This document shows positions 6,439 to 51,280 of a stretch of 51,280 nt of DNA, in pieces. This DNA comes from a virus. Its lineage: Duplodnaviria; Caudoviricetes. Both the position numbers and the translations under genes were made by a program. Each line of letters starts with the position of its first letter. Positions within the stretch are counted from its first letter, which is position 1. The notes under the pieces are model-generated. The model had not been told where the DNA came from. It searched no databases and saw nothing but the letters and a program-made list of their open reading frames with translations. Location of the stretch: positions 1 through 51,280 of IMG/VR virus record IMGVR_UViG_3300032327_000957, one strand, 5' to 3'.

Positions 6439-7119
6439 TTAGGATTTTTGTGTTTTAATTACCTCATCTATCAATCCATAACTTACAGCTTCATCAGCAG
6501 ATAACCATAAATCACGGTCAGCATCTTTCTTAATTATTTCAGGATCTTTATCACAAAACTCACCTAATAAGGTGAATAATAATTCATTCACTTTTTCCCA
6601 TTCTTGCCAAGTGATTTTAGCATCTAAGATATGCCCACCTGCACCACCTGATGATTGGTGTATCATTGATCTTGAAAATCTTAAAGAAGATCTTTTACCT
6701 TTTGTACCTGCACCTAAAAGTACTGCCCCCATTGAAGCACACATTCCTGTATTTATTGTTTGTATATCAGATTTTATATACTGCATTACATCTACAATAG
6801 ATAATCCAGATTTAACTGAACCTCCAGGACTATCAATATGCATTATAATATCCTTTGGATTTTTTGGATCTGTTGAATCTAAATACATTAACTGTGCTTG
6901 AACAATTGTGCTCATGTGGTCATTTACAGGTCCTGCTAACCAAAGCATTCTGTCTCTCATTAATCTTGAGAAGATATCCATTTGAGTTACTCTCATTTCT
7001 CTTTCTTCTAAGATATAAGGTGTCATGCTGCTCTCTATACCTTTTTCATAGTAATCTAAGTTTAGAGAACTAATGCCATTAGACATGGCGTACTTTACAA
7101 AATCATTTTGTCTGTTCAT
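6439..7119 (-). CDS. clpP: ATP-dependent Clp protease proteolytic subunit
   Basis: DIFSRLMRDR, IDSPGGSV, GMCASMGAVLL (catalytic Ser), MIHQ (His), DRDLWLSADEAVSYGLID. Confidence 0.97.
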   Translation of the reverse strand: MNRQNDFVKYAMSNGISSLNLDYYEKGIESSMTPYILEEREMRVTQMDIFSRLMRDRMLWLAGPVNDHMSTIVQAQLMYLDSTDPKNPKDIIMHIDSPGGSVKSGLSIVDVMQYIKSDIQTINTGMCASMGAVLLGAGTKGKRSSLRFSRSMIHQSSGGAGGHILDAKITWQEWEKVNELLFTLLGEFCDKDPEIIKKDADRDLWLSADEAVSYGLIDEVIKTQKS

Positions 7120-14370: not shown

Positions 14371-14847
14371 TTAATTAATTACGTTTATGTCTAAAATTTC
14401 TAAATCCATTTTTCCAATAGGCACATCTATTGTAGCGATATCTCCTACGATTTTACCAATAAGTCCTTTTCCAATTGGTGAATTAAAAGATATTTTACCT
14501 TCTTTTATATTTACTTCATTTTCAGGAACTATAGAAAATGTTTGTTCTTTTTTAATCTTTTGATTAAAAACTCTTACTCGTGTAAGTAATTGAACAGATG
14601 AATTATCTACATTATCAGAACTTATGATAATACATTTTGCTATTTTTTGTTCTAATTCAATAATCTTTTTATTTAGATTATCTATATTTTCTTTTGCGGA
14701 TTCAAACTCCGCGTTTTCTGATATATCTCCTTTATCTCTAGCTTCCATCATCATTTGGGCAGCTTCTCTAAGATCTATACCTTTTAACTTCTTTAATTCA
14801 GTTTGCATACTATGGAAGCCTTCCTTAGTTACTAGTAATTTACTCAT
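14371..14847 (-). CDS. greA: Transcription elongation factor GreA
   Basis: EARDKGDISENAEF acidic tip; ISFNSPIGKGLIGK C-domain. Confidence 0.96.
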   Translation of the reverse strand: MSKLLVTKEGFHSMQTELKKLKGIDLREAAQMMMEARDKGDISENAEFESAKENIDNLNKKIIELEQKIAKCIIISSDNVDNSSVQLLTRVRVFNQKIKKEQTFSIVPENEVNIKEGKISFNSPIGKGLIGKIVGDIATIDVPIGKMDLEILDINVIN

Positions 14848-15827: not shown

Positions 15828-15853
15828 AAAATGTTCCCTAAAGGAACATTTTT
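15826..15853. terminator. Bidirectional terminator
   Basis: AAAAATGTTCC-CTAAA-GGAACATTTTT. Confidence 0.75.
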
Positions 15854-16896
15854 AAAGAAGATAATGATTTACTTAAGATATATTCGATATCTTCAATTTG
15901 CTCATAACGAATACGAATTAAATCAATATAATTATTTTCACAATAATCGTTTTTAATATTATCATTTATTTTTGTTTTTTTAAATGCTTCTTCACCACCA
16001 AAATATGACAATGCTTTATAATGTTGAATTCCATCAAATTCTATACAAATTCTTAATGAAGGTATATAAAAATCAAATGGTAAACAAAATATATTTTTAC
16101 AATCTTCAAATTTTTTTTGTCTTTCAAAGACAATATTATTTTCAGTTAAAAATTTATTAATCTTTTTCTCTCCTTTTGATTCATTGCATAGAGAACATCC
16201 ATTACCTTGTAAATGTGAATTCGGAATTTGACTAAAATCTCCATGTATAGGACAAGTTATTATTATCTTAGTTTTAGTATTTATGTAATTAGACTTATCA
16301 TATATAAATTTATTATCATGAATTATATTAGATTCTAATATGAATTTTTTAGTTGAATTAACTCTATTTAATCCTTCTGGATGGCATATTAAATGAGATT
16401 CTGGAGATTGTTCAAACATCTCATTAGTTTTATTAAAAATAATTTTTACTTTTTCTTTACAGTTTTTATATTCCACTAAAGAGTAATCAAATTCATCTTT
16501 CCAAATTTTTTTTGCTTTATGAATAAAGTATTCTTGGTTCATATTTAACTCAGGTGCATAATTTAAATGAGAATTTGCTATTTGTTCAAATACTATTCCT
16601 TCATATTTTATTTTTATTTTTTTTAAAGCTCCTTTATAATTAGTTAATGAATAGTCGTACTTATTCCCCCATTTAATTTTTGCTTCTTTTATAAATTCTT
16701 CTGATGTTTTTAATGGTGTATTTTTTTCTGGACATCTTCCTAATAAAATATGTTTTACTACTTTTTGTTTATATAATACATTATTATATAATATTTCTAT
16801 AGTATCATTTGATAATATTTTATCTTTCAAATTTAAATACTCATATTTATAACCATGCATTTCATGCGCTCTATCTAAAAATTCTTGCTTTGTCAT
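15838..16896 (-). CDS. Putative homing endonuclease: repeated DUF723-like units plus C-terminal Vsr/PD-(D/E)XK-like nuclease
   Basis: Four FIxxAxxxxxxxYDYS-type repeats, CPIHG zinc motif, LPFDFYIP...IEFDGIQHY. Confidence 0.75.
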   Translation of the reverse strand: MTKQEFLDRAHEMHGYKYEYLNLKDKILSNDTIEILYNNVLYKQKVVKHILLGRCPEKNTPLKTSEEFIKEAKIKWGNKYDYSLTNYKGALKKIKIKYEGIVFEQIANSHLNYAPELNMNQEYFIHKAKKIWKDEFDYSLVEYKNCKEKVKIIFNKTNEMFEQSPESHLICHPEGLNRVNSTKKFILESNIIHDNKFIYDKSNYINTKTKIIITCPIHGDFSQIPNSHLQGNGCSLCNESKGEKKINKFLTENNIVFERQKKFEDCKNIFCLPFDFYIPSLRICIEFDGIQHYKALSYFGGEEAFKKTKINDNIKNDYCENNYIDLIRIRYEQIEDIEYILSKSLSSLKMFL

Positions 16897-17019: not shown

Positions 17020-18237
17020 ATGGCAAAAGCAGCAAAAGAAGTTAAAAAATTTGAGTTTAGTAAAATTGGAACTGTATTAGATAATATAGGAAAAACTATT
17101 CCTATTCAAATTGAGAAAGAAATTAAAGAAAGAAAATTTTTATCAACAGGTGTTTATTTATTAGATGCTTGTTTATCCGGAAAACTATTAGGAGGTGGTA
17201 TATCAACAAATCGTATAAGTTGCGTAGCAGGTGAAAGCGGAGCAGGTAAGTCATTTATTTGCTATTCTGTTGCAAAGAATGCTCAAAAATCTGGATATTC
17301 AGTAATTTATATTGATACCGAGCAAAGTATAGATTTACAAGATTTACCTAATTATGGAATTGATAATTCGTTAGAAAAGTTTAGGTTAGTTCGTTCTAAT
17401 AAAGTAGAAGATGTTAATATGTTATTAACTCAACTATTAGATGAACTTAAAGATCAAAAATTAGCAGGATTTGAATTACCAAAATTATTAATCGTTATTG
17501 ATTCGTTAGGTCAAATGGCTTCTAATAAAGAAAAAGAAGACTTATTGGCTGGTAATATTAAACAAGATATGACCAAAGCAAAAGCATTAGGATCTATGTT
17601 TAGAAGTATTAATACAGATTTAGGATTTTTAGATATACCACTTTTAGTTGCTAACCAAACATACCAAACAATGGATTTATTCAGTCAAGAAAAATTACGA
17701 GGTGGGAATGGTCTTTTATATTCTGCTTCAGTTATAGGAATGATGTCAAAATCAAAATTAAAGGACTCTAATGTTGATGAAATGGATTTAGGAGCATCAG
17801 GAATAAGTGTTTTATTTAAATGTATTAAAAACCGTTTAGCAAAACCTAAAAAAATTCGCTTTGATATATCATTTGTAAATGGTATGAACCCTTATACAGG
17901 TTTAGAAGCTTTTTGTCGTCCTGAATATTTCAATCAAATAGGAATTGCACAAGGTAAATCGGAAGTTGATAAAAAAACAGGAGAATTTACATTTACTCCT
18001 GGAGGAACTCGTTGGTATGTAAGACATTTAGATAAATCTTTTACTTTACAAAAACTATTCAATTCTGATGTTTTTACATCAGATATATTAAATAAAATGG
18101 AACCTATTGTAAATGAATATTTTAGATTTAAATCTTTGGATGAATTGGATGAAGTTAATAAAAAATTTGAAGAAATAATTGAGGATGATGAAAGAGATGC
18201 AGATGATTTGAATGCAGAAGATTTATTTGGTGAATAA
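17020..18237 (+). CDS. uvsX: RecA-like recombinase (T4 UvsX type)
   Basis: STG motif, Walker A GESGAGKS, YIDTEQ, Walker B IVIDSLG, VANQ, RGGNGLLYSAS. Confidence 0.92.
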   Translation: MAKAAKEVKKFEFSKIGTVLDNIGKTIPIQIEKEIKERKFLSTGVYLLDACLSGKLLGGGISTNRISCVAGESGAGKSFICYSVAKNAQKSGYSVIYIDTEQSIDLQDLPNYGIDNSLEKFRLVRSNKVEDVNMLLTQLLDELKDQKLAGFELPKLLIVIDSLGQMASNKEKEDLLAGNIKQDMTKAKALGSMFRSINTDLGFLDIPLLVANQTYQTMDLFSQEKLRGGNGLLYSASVIGMMSKSKLKDSNVDEMDLGASGISVLFKCIKNRLAKPKKIRFDISFVNGMNPYTGLEAFCRPEYFNQIGIAQGKSEVDKKTGEFTFTPGGTRWYVRHLDKSFTLQKLFNSDVFTSDILNKMEPIVNEYFRFKSLDELDEVNKKFEEIIEDDERDADDLNAEDLFGE

Positions 18238-18328: not shown

Positions 18329-18844
18329 TTGGCAAAAAAAACTAGAAAACACAAAATTAACGGAGAAGTTAGATTTGATAGAGTTCGTCTTGTTAAAGAT
18401 GGAATACAAACAATCGTATCATCTTATGAAGCTTTTAAAATGGCAGAAGCAGAAGGATTGGATTTAATTCTTATTTCAGAAACTGCTAATCCACCTGTTG
18501 TTAGAATAGAAGATTATCAAAAATTTCTATATGATATAGAAAAAGCTGAGAAAGAAAAAAAGAAAAATTCAACTAAGACTGAGATGAAAGAAATTCAACT
18601 TAGTCCAAATATTGCTGAAAATGATTTATTAACTAAAGCAAAAAAAGCCAAAGAATTTTTAGAAGAACACGATAAAGTTAAATGTGTAATTACCCTAAAA
18701 GGTAGACAAAGAACTATGCCTGCTGCCGGTGAATTGGTAATGTTAAAATTTGCTGAAACATTAAGTGAGTATGGACTTCCTGAAACCCTTCCAAAAATGG
18801 AAGGTAATAAATGGTTAATGATTCTTAAACCAAAAAAGAAATAA
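18329..18844 (+). CDS. infC: Translation initiation factor IF-3 (TTG start)
   Basis: INGEVRFDRVRLV, AEAEGLDLILI...PPVVRIEDYQKF, KEIQLSPNI...KVKC..KGR. Confidence 0.93.
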   Translation: MAKKTRKHKINGEVRFDRVRLVKDGIQTIVSSYEAFKMAEAEGLDLILISETANPPVVRIEDYQKFLYDIEKAEKEKKKNSTKTEMKEIQLSPNIAENDLLTKAKKAKEFLEEHDKVKCVITLKGRQRTMPAAGELVMLKFAETLSEYGLPETLPKMEGNKWLMILKPKKK

Positions 18845-20529: not shown

Positions 20530-21381
20530 ATGAGAAAAGATTATTACAACATTTTAAGCATTGATAAGTCTGCTTCTACAGAAGATATTAAAAAGGCTTA
20601 TCGAAAGTTGGCAATGACCCACCATCCTGATAAAGGTGGAGATGAAGCAAAGTTTAAAGAAATAACTGAGGCTTATGAAATTTTATCAGATAATGATAAA
20701 AAGTTTAAATATGATAACAATATAGGAGATAATCCTTTTGGAGGAGGTAATCCTTTTGGAAATGGTAATCCTTTTGGAGGAGGTTTTAATGTAGATGATA
20801 TATTCTCCCATTTTTTTAATCAACAAAGGATTAGAAAAGGGGGTGATTTAAGAATTAAACTTATATTAAATATTAATGAAATTATTAATGGTTGTAATAG
20901 AACTATTAAATATCCAAGAAATATTGTTAAAAATAACACTGTTATAACAGCAGAAGATACTGTTGAAATTAATTTTCCAGCAGGTGTTGGAACGGGTATG
21001 ACATTAAACATGCCTGGTAAAGGTAATGAAATATTAGATGGACAACCAGGTGATCTTCATGTAATAATTGAAGAAGAACAATATACTGAGTTTTCAAGAA
21101 TTAATTCTGATTTAGTATATGAAAGAAAATTAAGTATTACTGATTTTGTATTAGGTACTAATTTTGATATAAATGCACCAACTGGTAAAATACAAGTAAC
21201 GGTTCCCGCAGGAACAGAAGTTGGTAGTAAACAAATTTTTAATGGGAAAGGAATTCCTGTTATAGATATGGGAGGAAATGTAAGGGGTAGAGGAAGTATT
21301 GTTGTTATTTTTTCAATAGAGATTCCAAAAACTTTAACTCCTGAAAAGAAAGCAATTTTTGAACAATTAAAAAATATATAA
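20530..21381 (+). CDS. dnaJ: DnaJ/Hsp40 co-chaperone, class B (no zinc finger)
   Basis: J-domain with HPD (HHPDKGG), G/F region, C-terminal domain GDLHV. Confidence 0.93.
20731..20784 (+). repeat. Three tandem 18-nt repeats encoding NPFG(G/N)G in DnaJ G/F linker
   Basis: AATCCTTTTGGA(GGA/AAT)GGT x3. Confidence 0.85.
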
Positions 21382-21692: not shown

Positions 21693-22640
21693 ATGTATAT
21701 GAAAAAATTTGATTACAAGGACATTAACCTAGTCCCAAAAAAATGTATTGTAGATAGCCGTTCTGAATGTGATACAAGCTTAAAATTAGGTAATTTTACA
21801 TTTAAGATGCCAATAGTTCCATCAAATATGGAATCAGTTATTAACGAAGACTTATGTATAAAATTAGCAGAAGCAGGTCATTTTTATATAATGCATCGCT
21901 TTGATAATGATATGTTTGAATTTCATAAAATGATGAAATCAAGACTATTAGTATCATCTATTTCTATGGGGGTAAATGAAGATGCTTATCAATTAGTAGA
22001 TAAATTTGTAGATAACGATACTTATCCTGATTTTATTACGATTGATATTGCTCATGGACACTCTGTTAAAATGAAAGATATGATAAAATATATAAAAGCT
22101 AATTTACCAGGTTCTTTTATTATAGCAGGTAATGTATCAACTCCCGAAGGAGTTTCTGATTTAGAATCTTGGGGAGCTCATGCTACAAAAGTTGGGATTG
22201 CACCAGGTGCTTTTTGTTCTACCGCAATGAATACAGGATTTGGATCTCGTGGTTGTCAAGCATCAGTTATTAAAGAATGTGCGACAGTTGCTACTAAACC
22301 AATTATAGCGGATGGTGGAATTAGGGAACCAGGTGATATTGCTAAATCACTTGTTTTAGGTGCTACTTGTGTAATGATTGGTGGTATGTTAGGTGGATTT
22401 TTAGATTCTCCAGGGGAAACTATTTATACAACAGAAGGTTCATTTAAAGAAATGTGGGGTTCTGCATCTAACAGACAAAGTGGAAAAACTTCAAGAATTG
22501 AGGGTATCTCTAAAAGAGTTCCATTAAAGAATAAAACTTTTTTAGAAGAGTATAAGTTTTTAACAGAATGTTTACAAAGTTCTATATCATATGGAGGTGG
22601 TAAAGATTTAAAGTGTTTTCTAAATGTATATTATATATAA
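21693..22640 (+). CDS. guaC: GMP reductase
   Basis: SRSECDT, ITIDIAHGHS, IAGNV, KVGIAPGAFCST, IIADGGIR, LQSSISYGGG; no CBS domains. Confidence 0.9.
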   Translation: MYMKKFDYKDINLVPKKCIVDSRSECDTSLKLGNFTFKMPIVPSNMESVINEDLCIKLAEAGHFYIMHRFDNDMFEFHKMMKSRLLVSSISMGVNEDAYQLVDKFVDNDTYPDFITIDIAHGHSVKMKDMIKYIKANLPGSFIIAGNVSTPEGVSDLESWGAHATKVGIAPGAFCSTAMNTGFGSRGCQASVIKECATVATKPIIADGGIREPGDIAKSLVLGATCVMIGGMLGGFLDSPGETIYTTEGSFKEMWGSASNRQSGKTSRIEGISKRVPLKNKTFLEEYKFLTECLQSSISYGGGKDLKCFLNVYYI

Positions 22641-23372: not shown

Positions 23373-23396
23373 AAAACACCCAAAAGGGTGTTTTTT
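23371..23396. terminator. Bidirectional terminator
   Basis: AAAAAACACCC-AAAA-GGGTGTTTTTT. Confidence 0.85.
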
Positions 23397-24675
23397 ATGC
23401 ATATTTCCATTTATATCCACCAGCAGTTTTTCTTTTACCACTTAAACAATGATTTATATTGTTTATATTATTCTCTCTTTCTGCTTCACTAATAGAATTA
23501 TATGTTTTTATATAATTATTTAATAAATCATATTGATTAATTGTTTTTTTATTATGTTTGTTATTAACATATTTATCTACAAAAGTTTCTTTATATTTCC
23601 ATATATAATTATTTGAAGATTTAATTTTATTATTGCAACAAGCACTAATTCTACTTGAATTAGAATTAGTTAATTTTGCAGCTTCTGCTATTGAATTAAA
23701 CTCTTTAATTTTATTTCCTAATAAATCATATTGAATAACTAATTTTATTTTATTATTTTTATATTCAATAGGAGATTTATCTTCACTATATTTCCATGTA
23801 AATCCTCCTGAAGATTTATTTTTTATTTGAATATTTATATTTGTTACTTTTTCTGCCTCCGCAATTGATTTATATGTTTTTATATAATTTCCTGATAAAT
23901 CATATTGATTAACTGATTTTAATTTTTCACTAATTAAATTATCTAAACCCAAATCAAATAATTCATCTTTATATCTCCATATAAAACCACCAGCAGTTTT
24001 TAACTCACCTCTACAACAATGAGCTACATTACCAAATCCTTTTATATCAGATAATGTATCCCATTCTTTAATTAAATTACCAAATAAATCATATTGAAGA
24101 ACCACTTTTTTTGGATTAGTTGATAATTGCTCTTTCCAAGATTCTTTATCTTTTTGTATATTACACTTTTTAAGATTTGTAAATATAGTTTTTTTAGAAA
24201 CTTCTAATTCTTCCGATAACTCAGGCATAGATAGATTCTCTATAATATATTTTTGATATAATAAATCTTTATCTAAAATAATTCTTGGAACACTTTTTGA
24301 AGGATTGTTAGAATAATATTCTTTTAATGATTTGGAAACATTTTGCTTTCTTTCTTCTGAAGCTTTAAATCCATTATGCCCATCTCCACCATTTGTAGAA
24401 TTTACCAGATTAAATCCCCAAGATTTAATTAAACATATCCAATATTGTTCCCAAAATTGCCATTCAGATTCTAAAACTTCATCTAAAATCTCTATATTCG
24501 GTTTAATCCCTTTTAATATTAATGAATTAATCCAATTATGTTTATGAGTTTTTCTTTCAGATCTCATACTTTCTCTTATATGAGAGCTTAATCTTTGTAT
24601 AGGATAACTTGTTTTTCCAACATATCTTATGTTTCCTAACTCATCTGATAATGAATAAATAAATGTTGTTTTCAT
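23395..24675 (-). CDS. GIY-YIG homing endonuclease with four NUMOD1-like DNA-binding repeats
   Basis: FIYSL...RYVGKT...R...E...N; four QYDLxGNxIKx repeats each ending in a WKY/WRY strand. Confidence 0.88.
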   Translation of the reverse strand: MKTTFIYSLSDELGNIRYVGKTSYPIQRLSSHIRESMRSERKTHKHNWINSLILKGIKPNIEILDEVLESEWQFWEQYWICLIKSWGFNLVNSTNGGDGHNGFKASEERKQNVSKSLKEYYSNNPSKSVPRIILDKDLLYQKYIIENLSMPELSEELEVSKKTIFTNLKKCNIQKDKESWKEQLSTNPKKVVLQYDLFGNLIKEWDTLSDIKGFGNVAHCCRGELKTAGGFIWRYKDELFDLGLDNLISEKLKSVNQYDLSGNYIKTYKSIAEAEKVTNINIQIKNKSSGGFTWKYSEDKSPIEYKNNKIKLVIQYDLLGNKIKEFNSIAEAAKLTNSNSSRISACCNNKIKSSNNYIWKYKETFVDKYVNNKHNKKTINQYDLLNNYIKTYNSISEAERENNINNINHCLSGKRKTAGGYKWKYA

Positions 24676-33593: not shown

Positions 33594-34436
33594 ATGAATG
33601 TAAAAGAAAAATATAAAGAATATTGCCTATCAAAAGGAATTAATTTTGAATTGATTGATAAAGTTAATTCATATGATAATACCACTATTTTTTGTCCTGC
33701 TGGAATGCAAAAGTTTAAAGATAAATTTAAAGATTTGGATTATACAGGAACGGAAGCTAATATACAAAGTTGTATTAGAATGAATGATTTTGAAGAAATT
33801 GGAGATAGTTCCCATTTATTATATTTTAATATGATCGGATTATTTAGTTTTCGTCAAATGTCTATTCAAGAAGCTATTGATTTTTGGTGTGATTTTTTGA
33901 TAAATCAGTTAGACTTAAAAATTGGTTATATAACAATCCATAAAGATAAATACGATGAATGGAAACATTTTTATTCTAAATGGAATCTACAAACTAGGAT
34001 TAGTGAAGATTGTATTTGGTCAGATGGTGAAATAGGCGGTTATTGTACTGAGTTTTTTATTAATGATATAGAAATAGGAAATATAGTTAATCCGTTAGGA
34101 ACATCAATTGATGTAGGCTTCGGTTTAGAGAGGATTGAGATGTTTGTGAATAATAAAGTAATTGATAAAGAAACTACTTTAAGAGAATCTATATTAAAAA
34201 TTATTGATAGTGGATTTATTCCATCAAATACAAAAGGTGGATATGTATTAAGAAAGCTTCTTAGGGAAGCTTTCAAATTAAACATTCATATAGACCATGA
34301 GTTTTATGATGCTGAAGTTAAAAGACAAACTAAAATAGTAGAAAGATACAATCGCTTAAAAGATAAGCACAAAGATATGCCTAAAGAATGGTGGTATGAT
34401 ACTCATGGTATTATTATAGATGATTTAAGTTTTTAA
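33594..34436 (+). CDS. Miniature alanyl-tRNA synthetase-like protein (aminoacylation module only)
   Basis: FCPAGMQKFK, QSCIRMND, HLLYFNMIGLFSF, EIGNIV, IDVGFGLERI, PSNTKGGYVLRKLLR, YDTHG; only 280 aa. Confidence 0.88.
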   Translation: MNVKEKYKEYCLSKGINFELIDKVNSYDNTTIFCPAGMQKFKDKFKDLDYTGTEANIQSCIRMNDFEEIGDSSHLLYFNMIGLFSFRQMSIQEAIDFWCDFLINQLDLKIGYITIHKDKYDEWKHFYSKWNLQTRISEDCIWSDGEIGGYCTEFFINDIEIGNIVNPLGTSIDVGFGLERIEMFVNNKVIDKETTLRESILKIIDSGFIPSNTKGGYVLRKLLREAFKLNIHIDHEFYDAEVKRQTKIVERYNRLKDKHKDMPKEWWYDTHGIIIDDLSF

Positions 34437-48689: not shown

Positions 48690-49241
48690 ATGAGCAAATT
48701 AATCTGTATTGTAGGAGCTCCCAGCTCAGGTAAATCAACCTTAGCCGCATCTATTCACTACCAACTTAAAAAGAAAGGTCTTAATTCCATATTTGTTACC
48801 GAAGCAGCCACCGATTATATAGCCGAATGGGGTATACCAAATACACCAATAGATCAAATGGTTATTTTCTATAAACAACTAAATAGAGAAAAAATGTATT
48901 TAGGTTCTAAAGATTATATTATATGTGATTCTTCCTCTATATTAAACTACTTCTATTTTAGGTCCTTATATCCTAAGAAATTATCTAATAAAGATGTTGC
49001 TGCTATAAATCATTTACAAAAAGAAATTCTTAAAAATATAAATCAATGGTATAAAATATATTATATCCCACCCATTTTAGATAATGTTGAAGATGGAATA
49101 CGATTCCAAAACAAAGACGAAATAGCAAGATTGGATAATGTAATACGAGATTATTTAATTTTAGAAAATATAGATCATACTGATCTATCAGATATTAATA
49201 TAGATGAACGTTGTAAATACATTTTCAAAGATATTGTATAA
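48690..49241 (+). CDS. NadR/AAA_28-like P-loop nucleotide kinase
   Basis: GAPSSGKST, VTEAA, IICDS, EDGIR. Confidence 0.75.
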   Translation: MSKLICIVGAPSSGKSTLAASIHYQLKKKGLNSIFVTEAATDYIAEWGIPNTPIDQMVIFYKQLNREKMYLGSKDYIICDSSSILNYFYFRSLYPKKLSNKDVAAINHLQKEILKNINQWYKIYYIPPILDNVEDGIRFQNKDEIARLDNVIRDYLILENIDHTDLSDINIDERCKYIFKDIV

Positions 49242-50127
49242 TAATTTGTTCCTTAAATTCTTTGAAATCTTTATTTCTTTTTGAAGAATTTAAGGAACGT
49301 TTTGTTATACACAAATTACTTATACAACTTATCTCTTCAGCTTTAATTTCTTTGTAGAACCCTTCGTAAATAGATATTTTATGATCTATAGTTGGATATT
49401 TTTTGTTATCATAATTTAAATTTAAATAATCTTTTATATATTCTCTATCATAAAAATCATAACCATCCCAATCTTCATATAATTTATTTTTAACTCTTTT
49501 AGTTAATTTTCTTACTTCTTTTTTATAATTAGAAAACTCTATCAAATATTTATCATAAAATTTTTTGATTTCTTCATCTGAGTATCTTAATTTTGGGTCT
49601 TCTATATCGTTTTTAGTTGAAATAAAATTTAAATTAGTAAATTTTATACTACCACTATTTACAAAACCATTATTTATATTATTTCTTAGTTCCCAAAAAT
49701 TAGAAGTACCATATTTTTCTTCCATTATATTTTTTCTTAATTCTTTATTAGATTCTAATAATAAATTTGTTTTTACCCCATATTTATTTGTAAATTTTTC
49801 TGCCATTATTTCTTTTGCTTCTTTTAACTCCATCCAGTTATTAACCCCATAAATTTTTTGAGATGTTATCACGGCTTTCTGTCTAGAACATTTTTTACAA
49901 GAATAAAATCCATGATTATTTTTATTCTTGATATATTTTCCATATTGAATATAATTTTCACTACTACATATTTTACATATTGCAGTTATTTTTACATGTG
50001 AACTTAATGGTAAGTCATATATATTTATATCTAATTTTTCAAATATATTAGCATTATATCCTAGTTTTATATAATGATTTCTATTTACACTAGTTATATT
50101 TACTGATATGGTATTTTCTTTAATCAT
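49225..50127 (-). CDS. HNH homing endonuclease-like protein
   Basis: CxxC pairs, YGV/YGT repeats, C-terminal TIDHKISI...NLCITKRSLNSSK; start probably ATG 50127. Confidence 0.75.
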   Translation of the reverse strand: MIKENTISVNITSVNRNHYIKLGYNANIFEKLDINIYDLPLSSHVKITAICKICSSENYIQYGKYIKNKNNHGFYSCKKCSRQKAVITSQKIYGVNNWMELKEAKEIMAEKFTNKYGVKTNLLLESNKELRKNIMEEKYGTSNFWELRNNINNGFVNSGSIKFTNLNFISTKNDIEDPKLRYSDEEIKKFYDKYLIEFSNYKKEVRKLTKRVKNKLYEDWDGYDFYDREYIKDYLNLNYDNKKYPTIDHKISIYEGFYKEIKAEEISCISNLCITKRSLNSSKRNKDFKEFKEQIIIQYL

Positions 50128-50183
50128 AAACTTTTTTATTATTTTAATATACAATATTATATTAAAAATAAAATATAAGTTTT

Positions 50184-51280
50184 ATGACTAAAGACGAAAA
50201 AATTAAAAAATTAGATTCGTTAAGAGCTAAAGCTTTTGAAGTGAAAAAAGAAGTGGAGTATTATAACGCCCTTCAATTAGCTTTGAAGCTGGTTCTTAAC
50301 GGTGCCAACCCCCAGTGGGTGTAAATCTACTGGGGGAAAAGAGGTTCTTACGGAGCATTAGCTACGAATTATTTTGTATTATTCAACAATAATGTAGCTG
50401 GCTCGATTACTGCTCATGGTAGAGAAGTAATCCAATTAATGGAAAAAGCAAATGACCATTATTGGTATAATATGTGGCATTTAGATACTGAATTACATGA
50501 AAAGTTAAATCTTAAAAATGTAAGACAAATAGATAAATCTTATCCAGTAAGTATTTATTGTGATACGGATAGTCTTTTTGCCTCATTCCAACCTGCAATG
50601 GATCATTGTGAATGGCAACATATGTATTCAAGTGGATTAGATTTTATCATGGATTTAGATAAGAATAGAATTGCTCAATATTTTATTGATGAATTAGATG
50701 AATATGGTAAAAAGTATGGGGTTGAAAATAAACATGATTTCGAATTAGAAAGAATTTCTGAATCTATAATTAGTATGGCAAAGAAGAAATATATACAACA
50801 TATTGTATATGAAGATGGTATTCCTTATGATAGATTTAATTATATTTATCCAAAAGGAGTTGAGTTGATTAGATCATCTACACCTTTATTTGCAAGAGAA
50901 AAGATTGTAGACATTGTTAAGTATTTATTTAAAAATCCTGATACATTTAACATTAAAGAATTACTTAAATTGGTTAAAGGTTTAAGAAAAGAATTTGATT
51001 TATGTGTTCCTGATAGAATTGATGATATAGCTTTACAATCTTCATGTACTAACTATGATAGAGATGTTAAAAATGATAAAAATAAGTTGGAGTTTGAAAC
51101 AGGTACTCACTTTGCTGTTAAAGCAGCGGCTTATCATAATTTCTTATTATATAAGCATAAAGATTTACAGGCTAAATATGAGTTTATAAAAGGTGGTAGT
51201 AAGATTAAGTATTATTATACTGATAATGCTGAACAACCAATATTTGCTTATTTAAGAGATCAGTTTCCGATTGAGTTTGC
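50184..51280 (+). CDS. Family B DNA polymerase, C-terminal half (gp43B-like), interrupted by a 42-nt stop-containing insertion; runs off window end
   Basis: My translation: MTKDEK...QLALKLVLNG[ANPQWV*IYWGKRG]SYGA...ITAHGR...YCDTDS (50556)...KKKY...KGVELIRSSTP, all in one frame; absent from ORF track. Confidence 0.93.
50301..50345 (+). other. Candidate programmed ribosomal bypass (coding gap) element
   Basis: GGT(50301)...GGT(50343) matched codons; hairpin CCCCCAGTGGGT-GTAA-ATCTACTGGGGG (50309-50336) with in-frame TAA at 50322. Confidence 0.7.

Follow-up and report, generated by a model that had tools for sequence, protein, structure and literature searches.

The C-terminal half of a DNA polymerase gene in a large phage is interrupted, inside catalytic motif B, by a 42-nt insert that is likely a programmed ribosomal bypass element, carried into polB by a neighboring putative homing endonuclease. 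The feature is real, selected and mobile. It lies near the end of a 51,280-nt sequence (here called the window; positions refer to it unless another contig is named), a 51-kb large-phage fragment of ~25% G+C with an estimated completeness of 9%. A preliminary description of the window had proposed that ribosomes leave the message at Gly40 and land on a second GGT. Its positions for the start codon (ATG 50184), both GGT codons, the 42-nt gap and the in-frame TAA all agree with the sequence (Table 1), and the downstream frame is, as it stated, open to the end of the window and includes YCDTDS. Both proposed sites also fit the comparative data from a family of related inserts, from which we infer the hop itself. 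That description did not recognize the gene as one half of a natural split PolB, nor the mobile family of elements at many codons and in a second class of genes, the adjacent putative homing endonuclease, or the long stem as the principal upstream structure.

Table 1. Features of the polB region in the window, and codon pairs of the terminase elements
Feature	Position	Strand	Remark
P-loop kinase gene (AAA_28 / thymidylate-kinase-like)	48690..49241	+	Profile matches
Putative free-standing HNH-type homing endonuclease, divergent from polB	49225..50154	-	Likely start ATG 50127
PolB C-terminal half, 5' coding block	50184..50303	+	Codons 1-40; ends K-L-V-L-N-G of motif B
Upstream stem	50217..50302	+	3' arm ends inside take-off codon (includes its GG); predicted driver of hop
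Predicted take-off codon GGT	50301..50303	+	Gly40
Coding gap, 42 nt	50304..50345	+	5-nt spacer, hairpin, 6-nt purine spacer, landing codon
C-run/G-run hairpin	50309..50336	+	12 bp, GUAA loop; arms 50309-50320/50325-50336
In-frame TAA	50322..50324	+	Seventh codon after take-off, in hairpin loop
Predicted landing codon GGT	50343..50345	+	
PolB C-terminal half, 3' coding block	50346..51280	+	S-Y-G and YCDTDS; runs off window end
TerL element L300			Take-off GGC, landing GGC; 62% G+C locus
TerL element L304			TCG to TCA
TerL element L316			GGT to GGC
TerL element L319			GGG to GGA
TerL element L324 (=L220)			GGA to GGA
TerL element L341			GCG to GCA
TerL element L289			CGG to CGA

The polymerase gene and its insert

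The gene at 50184, whose 3' block matches PF00136 (E = 1.1e-10) as well as PHROG 1918 and 262, encodes the C-terminal portion of a family B polymerase that is naturally split in two. Intact homologs have the same start Met, with the motif B Lys as residue 35, and in four large relatives the N-terminal half is a separate gene elsewhere. The nearest records in the annotated phage set come from 635- to 642-kb uncultured phages and show 65 to 69% identity. The polymerase P0001, 94% identical over exon 2, has a continuous motif B without the insert, and L074 and L163 are likewise close relatives that lack it. No cultured phage showed more than 34% identity to the P0001 polymerase, and a PDB sequence search gave 0 matches; the predicted model of P0001 best matched RB69 gp43, with a low TM score, and was poor across residues 28 to 63. 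No tRNA genes were found in the window. Host-like genes at 6439-7119, 14371-14847, 17020-18237, 18329-18844, 20530-21381, 21693-22640 and 33594-34436 encode what we take, from their translations, to be relatives of ClpP, GreA, RecA, IF-3, DnaJ, GMP reductase and a short alanyl-tRNA synthetase.

The insert has a G+C content of 55%, more than twice that of the window, and equally GC-rich 42-mers account for 78 of 51,239. The GC-rich insert with a 12-bp stem and GUAA loop was correctly described at the outset: the stem is present in both the MFE and the centroid structures (z = -2.6; 2 of 200 shuffles equaled it), and at -22.6 kcal/mol the hairpin is the strongest in the window, the next reaching -18.4 (44-nt windows of at least 40% G+C, both strands). 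The loop is indeed a GNRA tetraloop, but an incidental one, as hairpin loop sequence and length vary across the family; a T-loop reading was rejected on the same free variation. The codon after take-off, GCC, is rare here (12 of 437 Ala codons in long ORFs), and between take-off and 50360 the sole other GGT or GGC sits in the stem (50318). An Rfam scan of the window returned 0 families, and no terminator-like site was found around the insert. An 8-nt direct repeat occurs at 50291-50298 and 50343-50350, 52 nt apart and in different frames; a deletion between its copies would shift the frame, and the repeat is probably forced by the stem and the protein.

The insert is not unique to the window and recurs in independent lake assemblies. 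It is present in two IMG/VR contigs (L003 and L004) with 2 changes, both in the unpaired 5' spacer, and it is spanned by contigs of sequencing runs X2, X4 and X19 (lake or freshwater), with no deletion listed; run X1, which may be the source sample, was left out of this count. These contigs rule out the assembly artifact that the preliminary description had named as a way to be wrong. The window and L004 have 1 difference in the 120 nt of codons 1 to 40 and 2 in the 42 nt of the insert, and the downstream block shows a dS of 0.21 and a dN/dS of 0.145. A dead or misassembled allele, in a phage that uses another polymerase, is very improbable. Since the contig is only 9% complete, the same genome could hold a second polB copy; against this reading stand the same insert in independent assemblies, the purifying selection downstream between two insert carriers, the one anatomy shared by 65 diverged inserts, and two near-complete relatives without a second copy. 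Each of the latter, G001 and G002 (98% complete), has one intact N-terminal half and one C-terminal half, which is interrupted, so that the hop product would be needed if the phage uses its own polymerase. The pseudogene reading therefore fails at the level of the family.

The same polymerase gene contains, in L004 (2174-4849 of that contig) and also in L003, a split intein at the YCDTD/S site. In L004 a free-standing 367-aa ORF lies between the halves, and Pfam Intein_splicing matches both pieces; the intein joint is found at window position 50570 in runs X2 and X4. The arrangement resembles the "fractured gene" layout as presented in PMC2677866, and the L004 polymerase would require a hop plus trans-splicing.

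A family of inserts in polymerase and terminase genes

The family set was collected with a DNA pattern for the conserved downstream peptide, which matched 46 viral and at least 120 metagenome loci. A total of 169 loci were examined, including L003, L004 and the window; 12 were too short, a few off-target or distant ones were removed by score, and some of the 169 are one contig fetched twice. Among the matches listed there were at least 65 distinct single-insert alleles (97 loci), 2 double-insert alleles and 36 intact alleles. The insert sites, again among the matches listed, are six motif B codons: Ala33 (5 alleles), Leu34 (22), Val37 (7), Gly40 (2), Ser41 (2) and Tyr42 (27), with the Gly40 site found only in the window's lineage. 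The double-insert alleles carry elements at Val and Tyr (L116) and at Leu and Tyr (L172), in tandem, five and eight codons apart. Presence and absence of the insert among orthologs, matched flanking codons and stem covariation, all foreseen in the preliminary description, are seen across the family.

The inserts are 36 to 49 nt long and represent all three frames (22, 24 and 19 alleles), so that 43 of the 65 shift the frame. This bears on whether the stop is simply read through, with the polymerase tolerating 14 extra residues in motif B. The window insert, in frame and with a single stop, would allow it, but the frame-shifting majority of the family would not; TAA is moreover the main stop in the window, ending 41 of 44 long ORFs, and the K-x3-N-x2-Y-G spacing is fixed among intact homologs. 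Readthrough had been disfavored from the beginning, and we regard it as extremely unlikely. Every insert contains an in-frame stop, at codon +2 in 44 alleles, +1 in 8 and +5 to +11 in 13. That a late stop sets the element apart from T4 gene 60 was likewise borne out, the stop adjoining take-off only in the 8 alleles with a stop at +1.

The distances within the element are narrowly constrained. The first CCC follows the 5' block's final codon by 6 nt in 51 of 65 alleles and by 5 to 7 nt in all 65. The gap stem begins 4 to 6 nt past take-off in 50 alleles (5 nt in the window), and in the other 15 it reaches, in MFE structures, to within 2 nt of the take-off codon or covers it. On the far side, 49 of 65 alleles have the landing triplet 5 to 7 nt past the end of the stem. 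Where the stem is extended at its base the allele is longer, and most such alleles of at least 44 nt retain a tail of 4 to 7 nt, which indicates that the landing position follows the base of the stem more closely than it follows the G-run. Gene 60 has a mini Shine-Dalgarno sequence 5 to 7 nt ahead of landing; here the distance from the end of the G-run to landing has a median of 9 nt and grows to 12 to 17 nt in alleles with long stems, in which the end of the stem is the better guide to landing. Stem positions 5 to 9 are paired in 61 to 65 of the 65 alleles, through many pair types, compared with shuffled maxima of 39 to 57, in a count that took the register from each allele's own fold and left relatedness in.

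Elements of the same build, at least seven alleles, split Walker A motifs of the large terminase (TerL) in smaller phages (31- to 41-kb phages and fragments). Among 81 matches to the terminase pattern, 10 loci (6 alleles) proved to be elements; the others were native Walker A motifs or chance. In G006, G008 and G010 (96 to 100% complete) the single TerL is the interrupted one. An upstream stem that reaches as far as take-off is present in six of the seven alleles (z = -2.2 to -5.0, mononucleotide shuffles); L300 lacks one but has a long gap stem. Most TerL elements have an HNH/NUMOD4 gene just upstream. Four of five upstream ORFs scanned matched HNH_3, one of them at 24.6 bits against a cut-off of 24.8, and the upstream gene of L324 is the small terminase. 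Cultured relatives of L324, with up to 44% identity, infect Flavobacterium and other Bacteroidota, a weak hint that Bacteroidota may be the host group; the closest cultured terminase checked, that of Flavobacterium phage Fpv11, is intact. PolB and the three kinds of TerL N terminus have no obvious peptide in common, which suggests that a nascent-peptide signal may not be needed.

Further pattern searches were made in other sequence sets. A generic viral-contig pattern recovered, among the matches listed, two PolB loci, the terminase elements L220 and L289, and others that look like chance. Among the ~120 matches listed from bacterial genomes, all chance-like, there was no element. Two of five large phage records contain the PolB element, and no convincing second element was found in those five with a pattern that demanded T-R-R before the C-run and that missed an L019-type allele.

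Codon pairs, upstream stems and the proposed hop

The triplet preceding the codon at which decoding would resume encodes the same amino acid as the take-off codon in 47 of 65 alleles, and in 37 of 38 outside the Tyr site, always in codon phase. In 41 of these 47 pairs the third base changes, with a constant direction: CTT or CTC becomes CTA, GTT becomes GTA, TCG becomes TCA, TAT becomes TAC and GCC becomes GCT. All 22 inserts at Leu34 have CTT or CTC followed by CTA, whereas codon usage at the insert positions is mixed in intact alleles, with TTA, for example, in 13 of 36 at Leu34. The wobble-changed pairs point to one tRNA that would read both codons, and we infer that the shift is nearly always toward the triplet best paired by a U34 or G34 anticodon. 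Target-site duplication alone was rejected as the source of the matched codons, given third bases that differ in a fixed direction, and take-off one codon later was rejected as well, since that codon varies and has no motif-preserving matching landing site. Non-cognate landing is seen in 17 of 27 alleles at Tyr42, 16 of which keep the middle A, and in one Ala allele. The codon after take-off is sense in 57 of 65 alleles, the window included, and is TTT or GTT in 32. With a sense codon usually in the A site, the aid that a stop or hungry codon gives in known cases is missing, and take-off would have to beat normal decoding. In many Leu34-site alleles (for example L013, L019 and L021) an out-of-frame ATG overlaps the landing codon just past the G-run, and a short junk ORF could begin there.

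Two further readings are affected by these codons. If translation ended in the insert and restarted downstream, two peptides would have to assemble; the polymerase is already split into two genes, the G-run could serve as a ribosome-binding site, and gene callers have annotated many homologs with a start just downstream. The first in-frame ATG is that at 50439, however, and a product begun there loses Ser-Tyr-Gly, as had been pointed out earlier, while the landing triplets (CTA, GTA, TAC and similar) are not start codons. Restart is accordingly a most improbable account. Removal of the hairpin from the mRNA with ligation of the ends, as a protein-assisted mini-intron, is also unlikely, if less so. 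It would suit the junction-to-stem distance fixed at 5 to 7 nt, the non-cognate landings at Tyr42, which would not trouble a splicing enzyme, and the GT..AG register available for the window allele. No register, however, gives the alleles a common boundary dinucleotide; 2 of 65 (the window allele and L003) allow GT..AG, and 5 of 65 allow a U...G register like that of group I. Boundaries and core of the group I, group II or spliceosomal type are absent, in keeping with the empty Rfam scan of the window, and the insert is too short for a self-splicing intron. Splicing also leaves unexplained the upstream stem ending at the take-off codon and the codon-phased synonymous pairs with an altered third base, and such pairs argue for translation, since a mechanism that cuts RNA has no use for them.

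The upstream stem lies in coding sequence. The preliminary description had drawn a hairpin at 50271-50288; such a pairing is possible, but the 5' exon folds preferentially into the longer stem listed in Table 1 (z = -4.4, with 0 of 200 shuffles as good, and -3.8 against synonymous resampling). Across the family, the median z of this stem is -4.0 in insert alleles (n = 65) and -0.8 in intact ones (n = 36; P = 1.6e-8), and the insert-less L074 and L163 are without it (z = +2.5 and +1.0). Alleles with Ala, Leu or Val inserts have a strong stem (medians of -5.0 to -5.4), and those with Tyr inserts a weak one (-1.7). In eight alleles with long gap stems the median is -0.8 and several have no upstream stem, as if one strong stem can substitute for the other. 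The synonymous codons upstream thus appear to be selected for a long stem with a 3' arm ending at or inside the take-off codon. Such a stem can close only as the mRNA exits the ribosome, which fits the "driver" model of gene 60 discussed in 10.1101/2024.12.09.627546.

In the bypass model that we favor, a ribosome with the Gly40 peptidyl-tRNA in its P site would stall when the G-C-rich hairpin, 5 to 7 nt downstream, meets the mRNA entry tunnel. The tRNA would release its codon, and the upstream stem, zipping as the mRNA exits, would pull the ribosome forward until the tRNA re-pairs on the second GGT, ~6 nt past the hairpin base. Decoding would restart at Ser41 to give an intact motif B, and the in-frame stop would serve mainly to clear ribosomes in which the hop fails. 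The insert would also shield its allele from the endonuclease, so that both would spread together by homing. A bolder generalization, which we put forward only tentatively, is that the element is a portable, gene-independent hop module of ~40 nt that works at nearly any codon without an A-site stop or hungry codon or a special nascent peptide, with landing set mainly by distance from the hairpin base and re-pairing optional, and that widely serves homing endonucleases of large and small phages as an intron substitute in conserved polymerase and terminase motifs.

Endonuclease association and comparison with known bypass systems

The endonuclease ORF next to polB matches PHROG 12131 homing endonuclease (E = 5e-8) and PHROG 1035 endonuclease VII (E = 3.5e-4), with weak HNH leads in Atlas; profile matches are modest overall, and the predicted fold is uninformative (pLDDT 37). 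Its dN/dS against L004 is 0.13. Of the insert alleles, 30 of 50 have an endonuclease-like ORF no more than 150 nt upstream, compared with 2 of 29 intact alleles (Fisher P = 3e-6), a count of alleles with at least 300 nt of flank that used a profile from the same loci, ignored relatedness and missed shortened ORFs on both sides (L076 and L097). The adjacent ORFs either form one divergent family with a C-terminal D-H-K...N-L...N motif or are GIY-YIG-like; 20 of the 50 insert alleles have no recognized adjacent endonuclease. Two more free-standing endonuclease-like ORFs, with PHROG HNH and intron-encoded nuclease matches, occur in the window at 15838-16896 (-) and 23395-24675 (-).

Comparison with L074, the nearest insert-less relative, suggests how the element arrived. 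There, only 38 nt separate the kinase gene from polB, which follows it, and no endonuclease intervenes. Codons 1 to 44 of the window differ from L074 at 32 of 132 nt, and codons 45 to 114 at only 11 of 210, a pattern consistent with the endonuclease ORF, the diverged codons 1 to 44 and the insert having been gained together; the kinase gene, which directly abuts polB in L074, would mark the left edge of the acquired cassette. Such a gain parallels the MobA cassette of Manning and Atkins (10.1101/2022.08.31.505936). On a 3'-block tree (a quick method, 57 rows of at least 200 aa, L003, L074 and L163 left out), the insert site is unclustered: the seven states need 28 changes, compared with 29.6 when labels are shuffled, and polymerases that are almost identical can have different inserts or lack one.

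Documented natural cases of bypass are few in the literature cited here, namely T4 gene 60 and its homologs, yeast mitochondrial byps and a Streptomyces phage terminase. In gene 60 and MobA (10.1101/2022.08.31.505936; Wills et al., 10.1101/2024.12.09.627546; review PMC7026636), as here, a noncoding gap lies in an essential phage gene, close to where the second half of a split protein begins. The codons for take-off and landing match or are wobble variants (GGT/GGT here, and such pairs in the 47 family members noted above), and the same wobble pairs occur in gene 60 homologs according to Manning and Atkins (10.1101/2022.08.31.505936). A predicted 5' stem-loop upstream of take-off, a gap stem-loop, an in-frame stop in the gap, an adjacent HNH (sometimes GIY-YIG-like) endonuclease, putative here, and recent repeated spread complete the likeness. 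The differences are considerable. The elements described here target motif B of PolB and Walker A of TerL, where the gene 60 target is Topo2L; the start Met is as in insert-less homologs, with no NTE or CTE peptide added; and six codons in a ten-codon stretch are used, compared with one site, plus or minus one codon, in gene 60. Take-off occurs where the upstream stem has its 3' end, 5 to 7 nt before the core of the gap hairpin, whereas the take-off codon of gene 60 lies within the 5' arm of its take-off stem-loop, a codon that only the minority of long-stem alleles here swallow. The next codon is usually sense and common, where the gene 60 type has a stop or rare codon; in the window it is rare, and with the stop at +7 the immediate stop of gene 60 is lacking. 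Landing occurs ~6 nt past the stem base without a long unstructured gap and is often non-cognate at Tyr. The element works like gene 60 but fails three of its defining features, and is a new variant, not a member of the MobA elements.

The byps of Magnusiomyces capitatus, as described in 10.1101/2022.08.31.505936, PMC5009743 and PMC7026636, are also short hairpin inserts (27 to 55 nt) that move between sites and genes, occur in any frame and several per gene, and tolerate imperfect landing matches (PMC5009743). Byps, however, need an unused A-site codon and relaxed mitochondrial ribosomes, whereas the phage elements are read by bacterial ribosomes with the standard code and have a usual sense A-site codon, an upstream stem in host codons and endonucleases as travel partners. 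In Streptomyces phage Hau3, by the account in PMC10732093, an insert in the large terminase gene likewise has a 5' stem-loop as proposed stimulator, but the gaps are of 10 nt, begin with the rare UUA and are proposed to be regulatory, there is no such C-run/G-run hairpin, and the position in the terminase is another. A 10- to 12-bp hairpin a few nucleotides 3' of the recoding site also recalls -1 frameshift stimulators (PMC8861025 and PMC5009743): the dnaX hairpin is given as 11 bp with a 5-nt spacer (PMC8861025), and the spacer of 3' stimulators at the entry tunnel as 6 to 9 nt (PMC5009743). Unlike -1 frameshifting, there is no slippery heptamer, the frame change is 0, +1 or +2, and 36 to 49 nt are skipped. 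In a literature search that lay mostly outside subscription papers, we found neither this type of element nor any bypass insert in motif B of phage PolB described; the word "polymerase" is absent from the text of 10.1101/2022.08.31.505936, whose supplements could bear on that absence.

The 65 motif B variants and seven TerL variants are versions in which evolution has varied spacers, stems and landing codons. They allow tests of pairing in the exiting mRNA as driver, of what determines the landing site, and of the need for the stop and the nascent peptide. They would also represent a third route, beside introns and inteins, for homing endonucleases into catalytic motifs. Lastly, the inserts offer an explanation for the shortened or nonsense N termini in many large-phage polymerase annotations. 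Database proteins in which a short nonsense N terminus is joined to motif B (P0011, P0020, P0029, P0034, P0039, P0042, P0059, P0072, P0086 and P0110) are probably gene calls that start inside such inserts.
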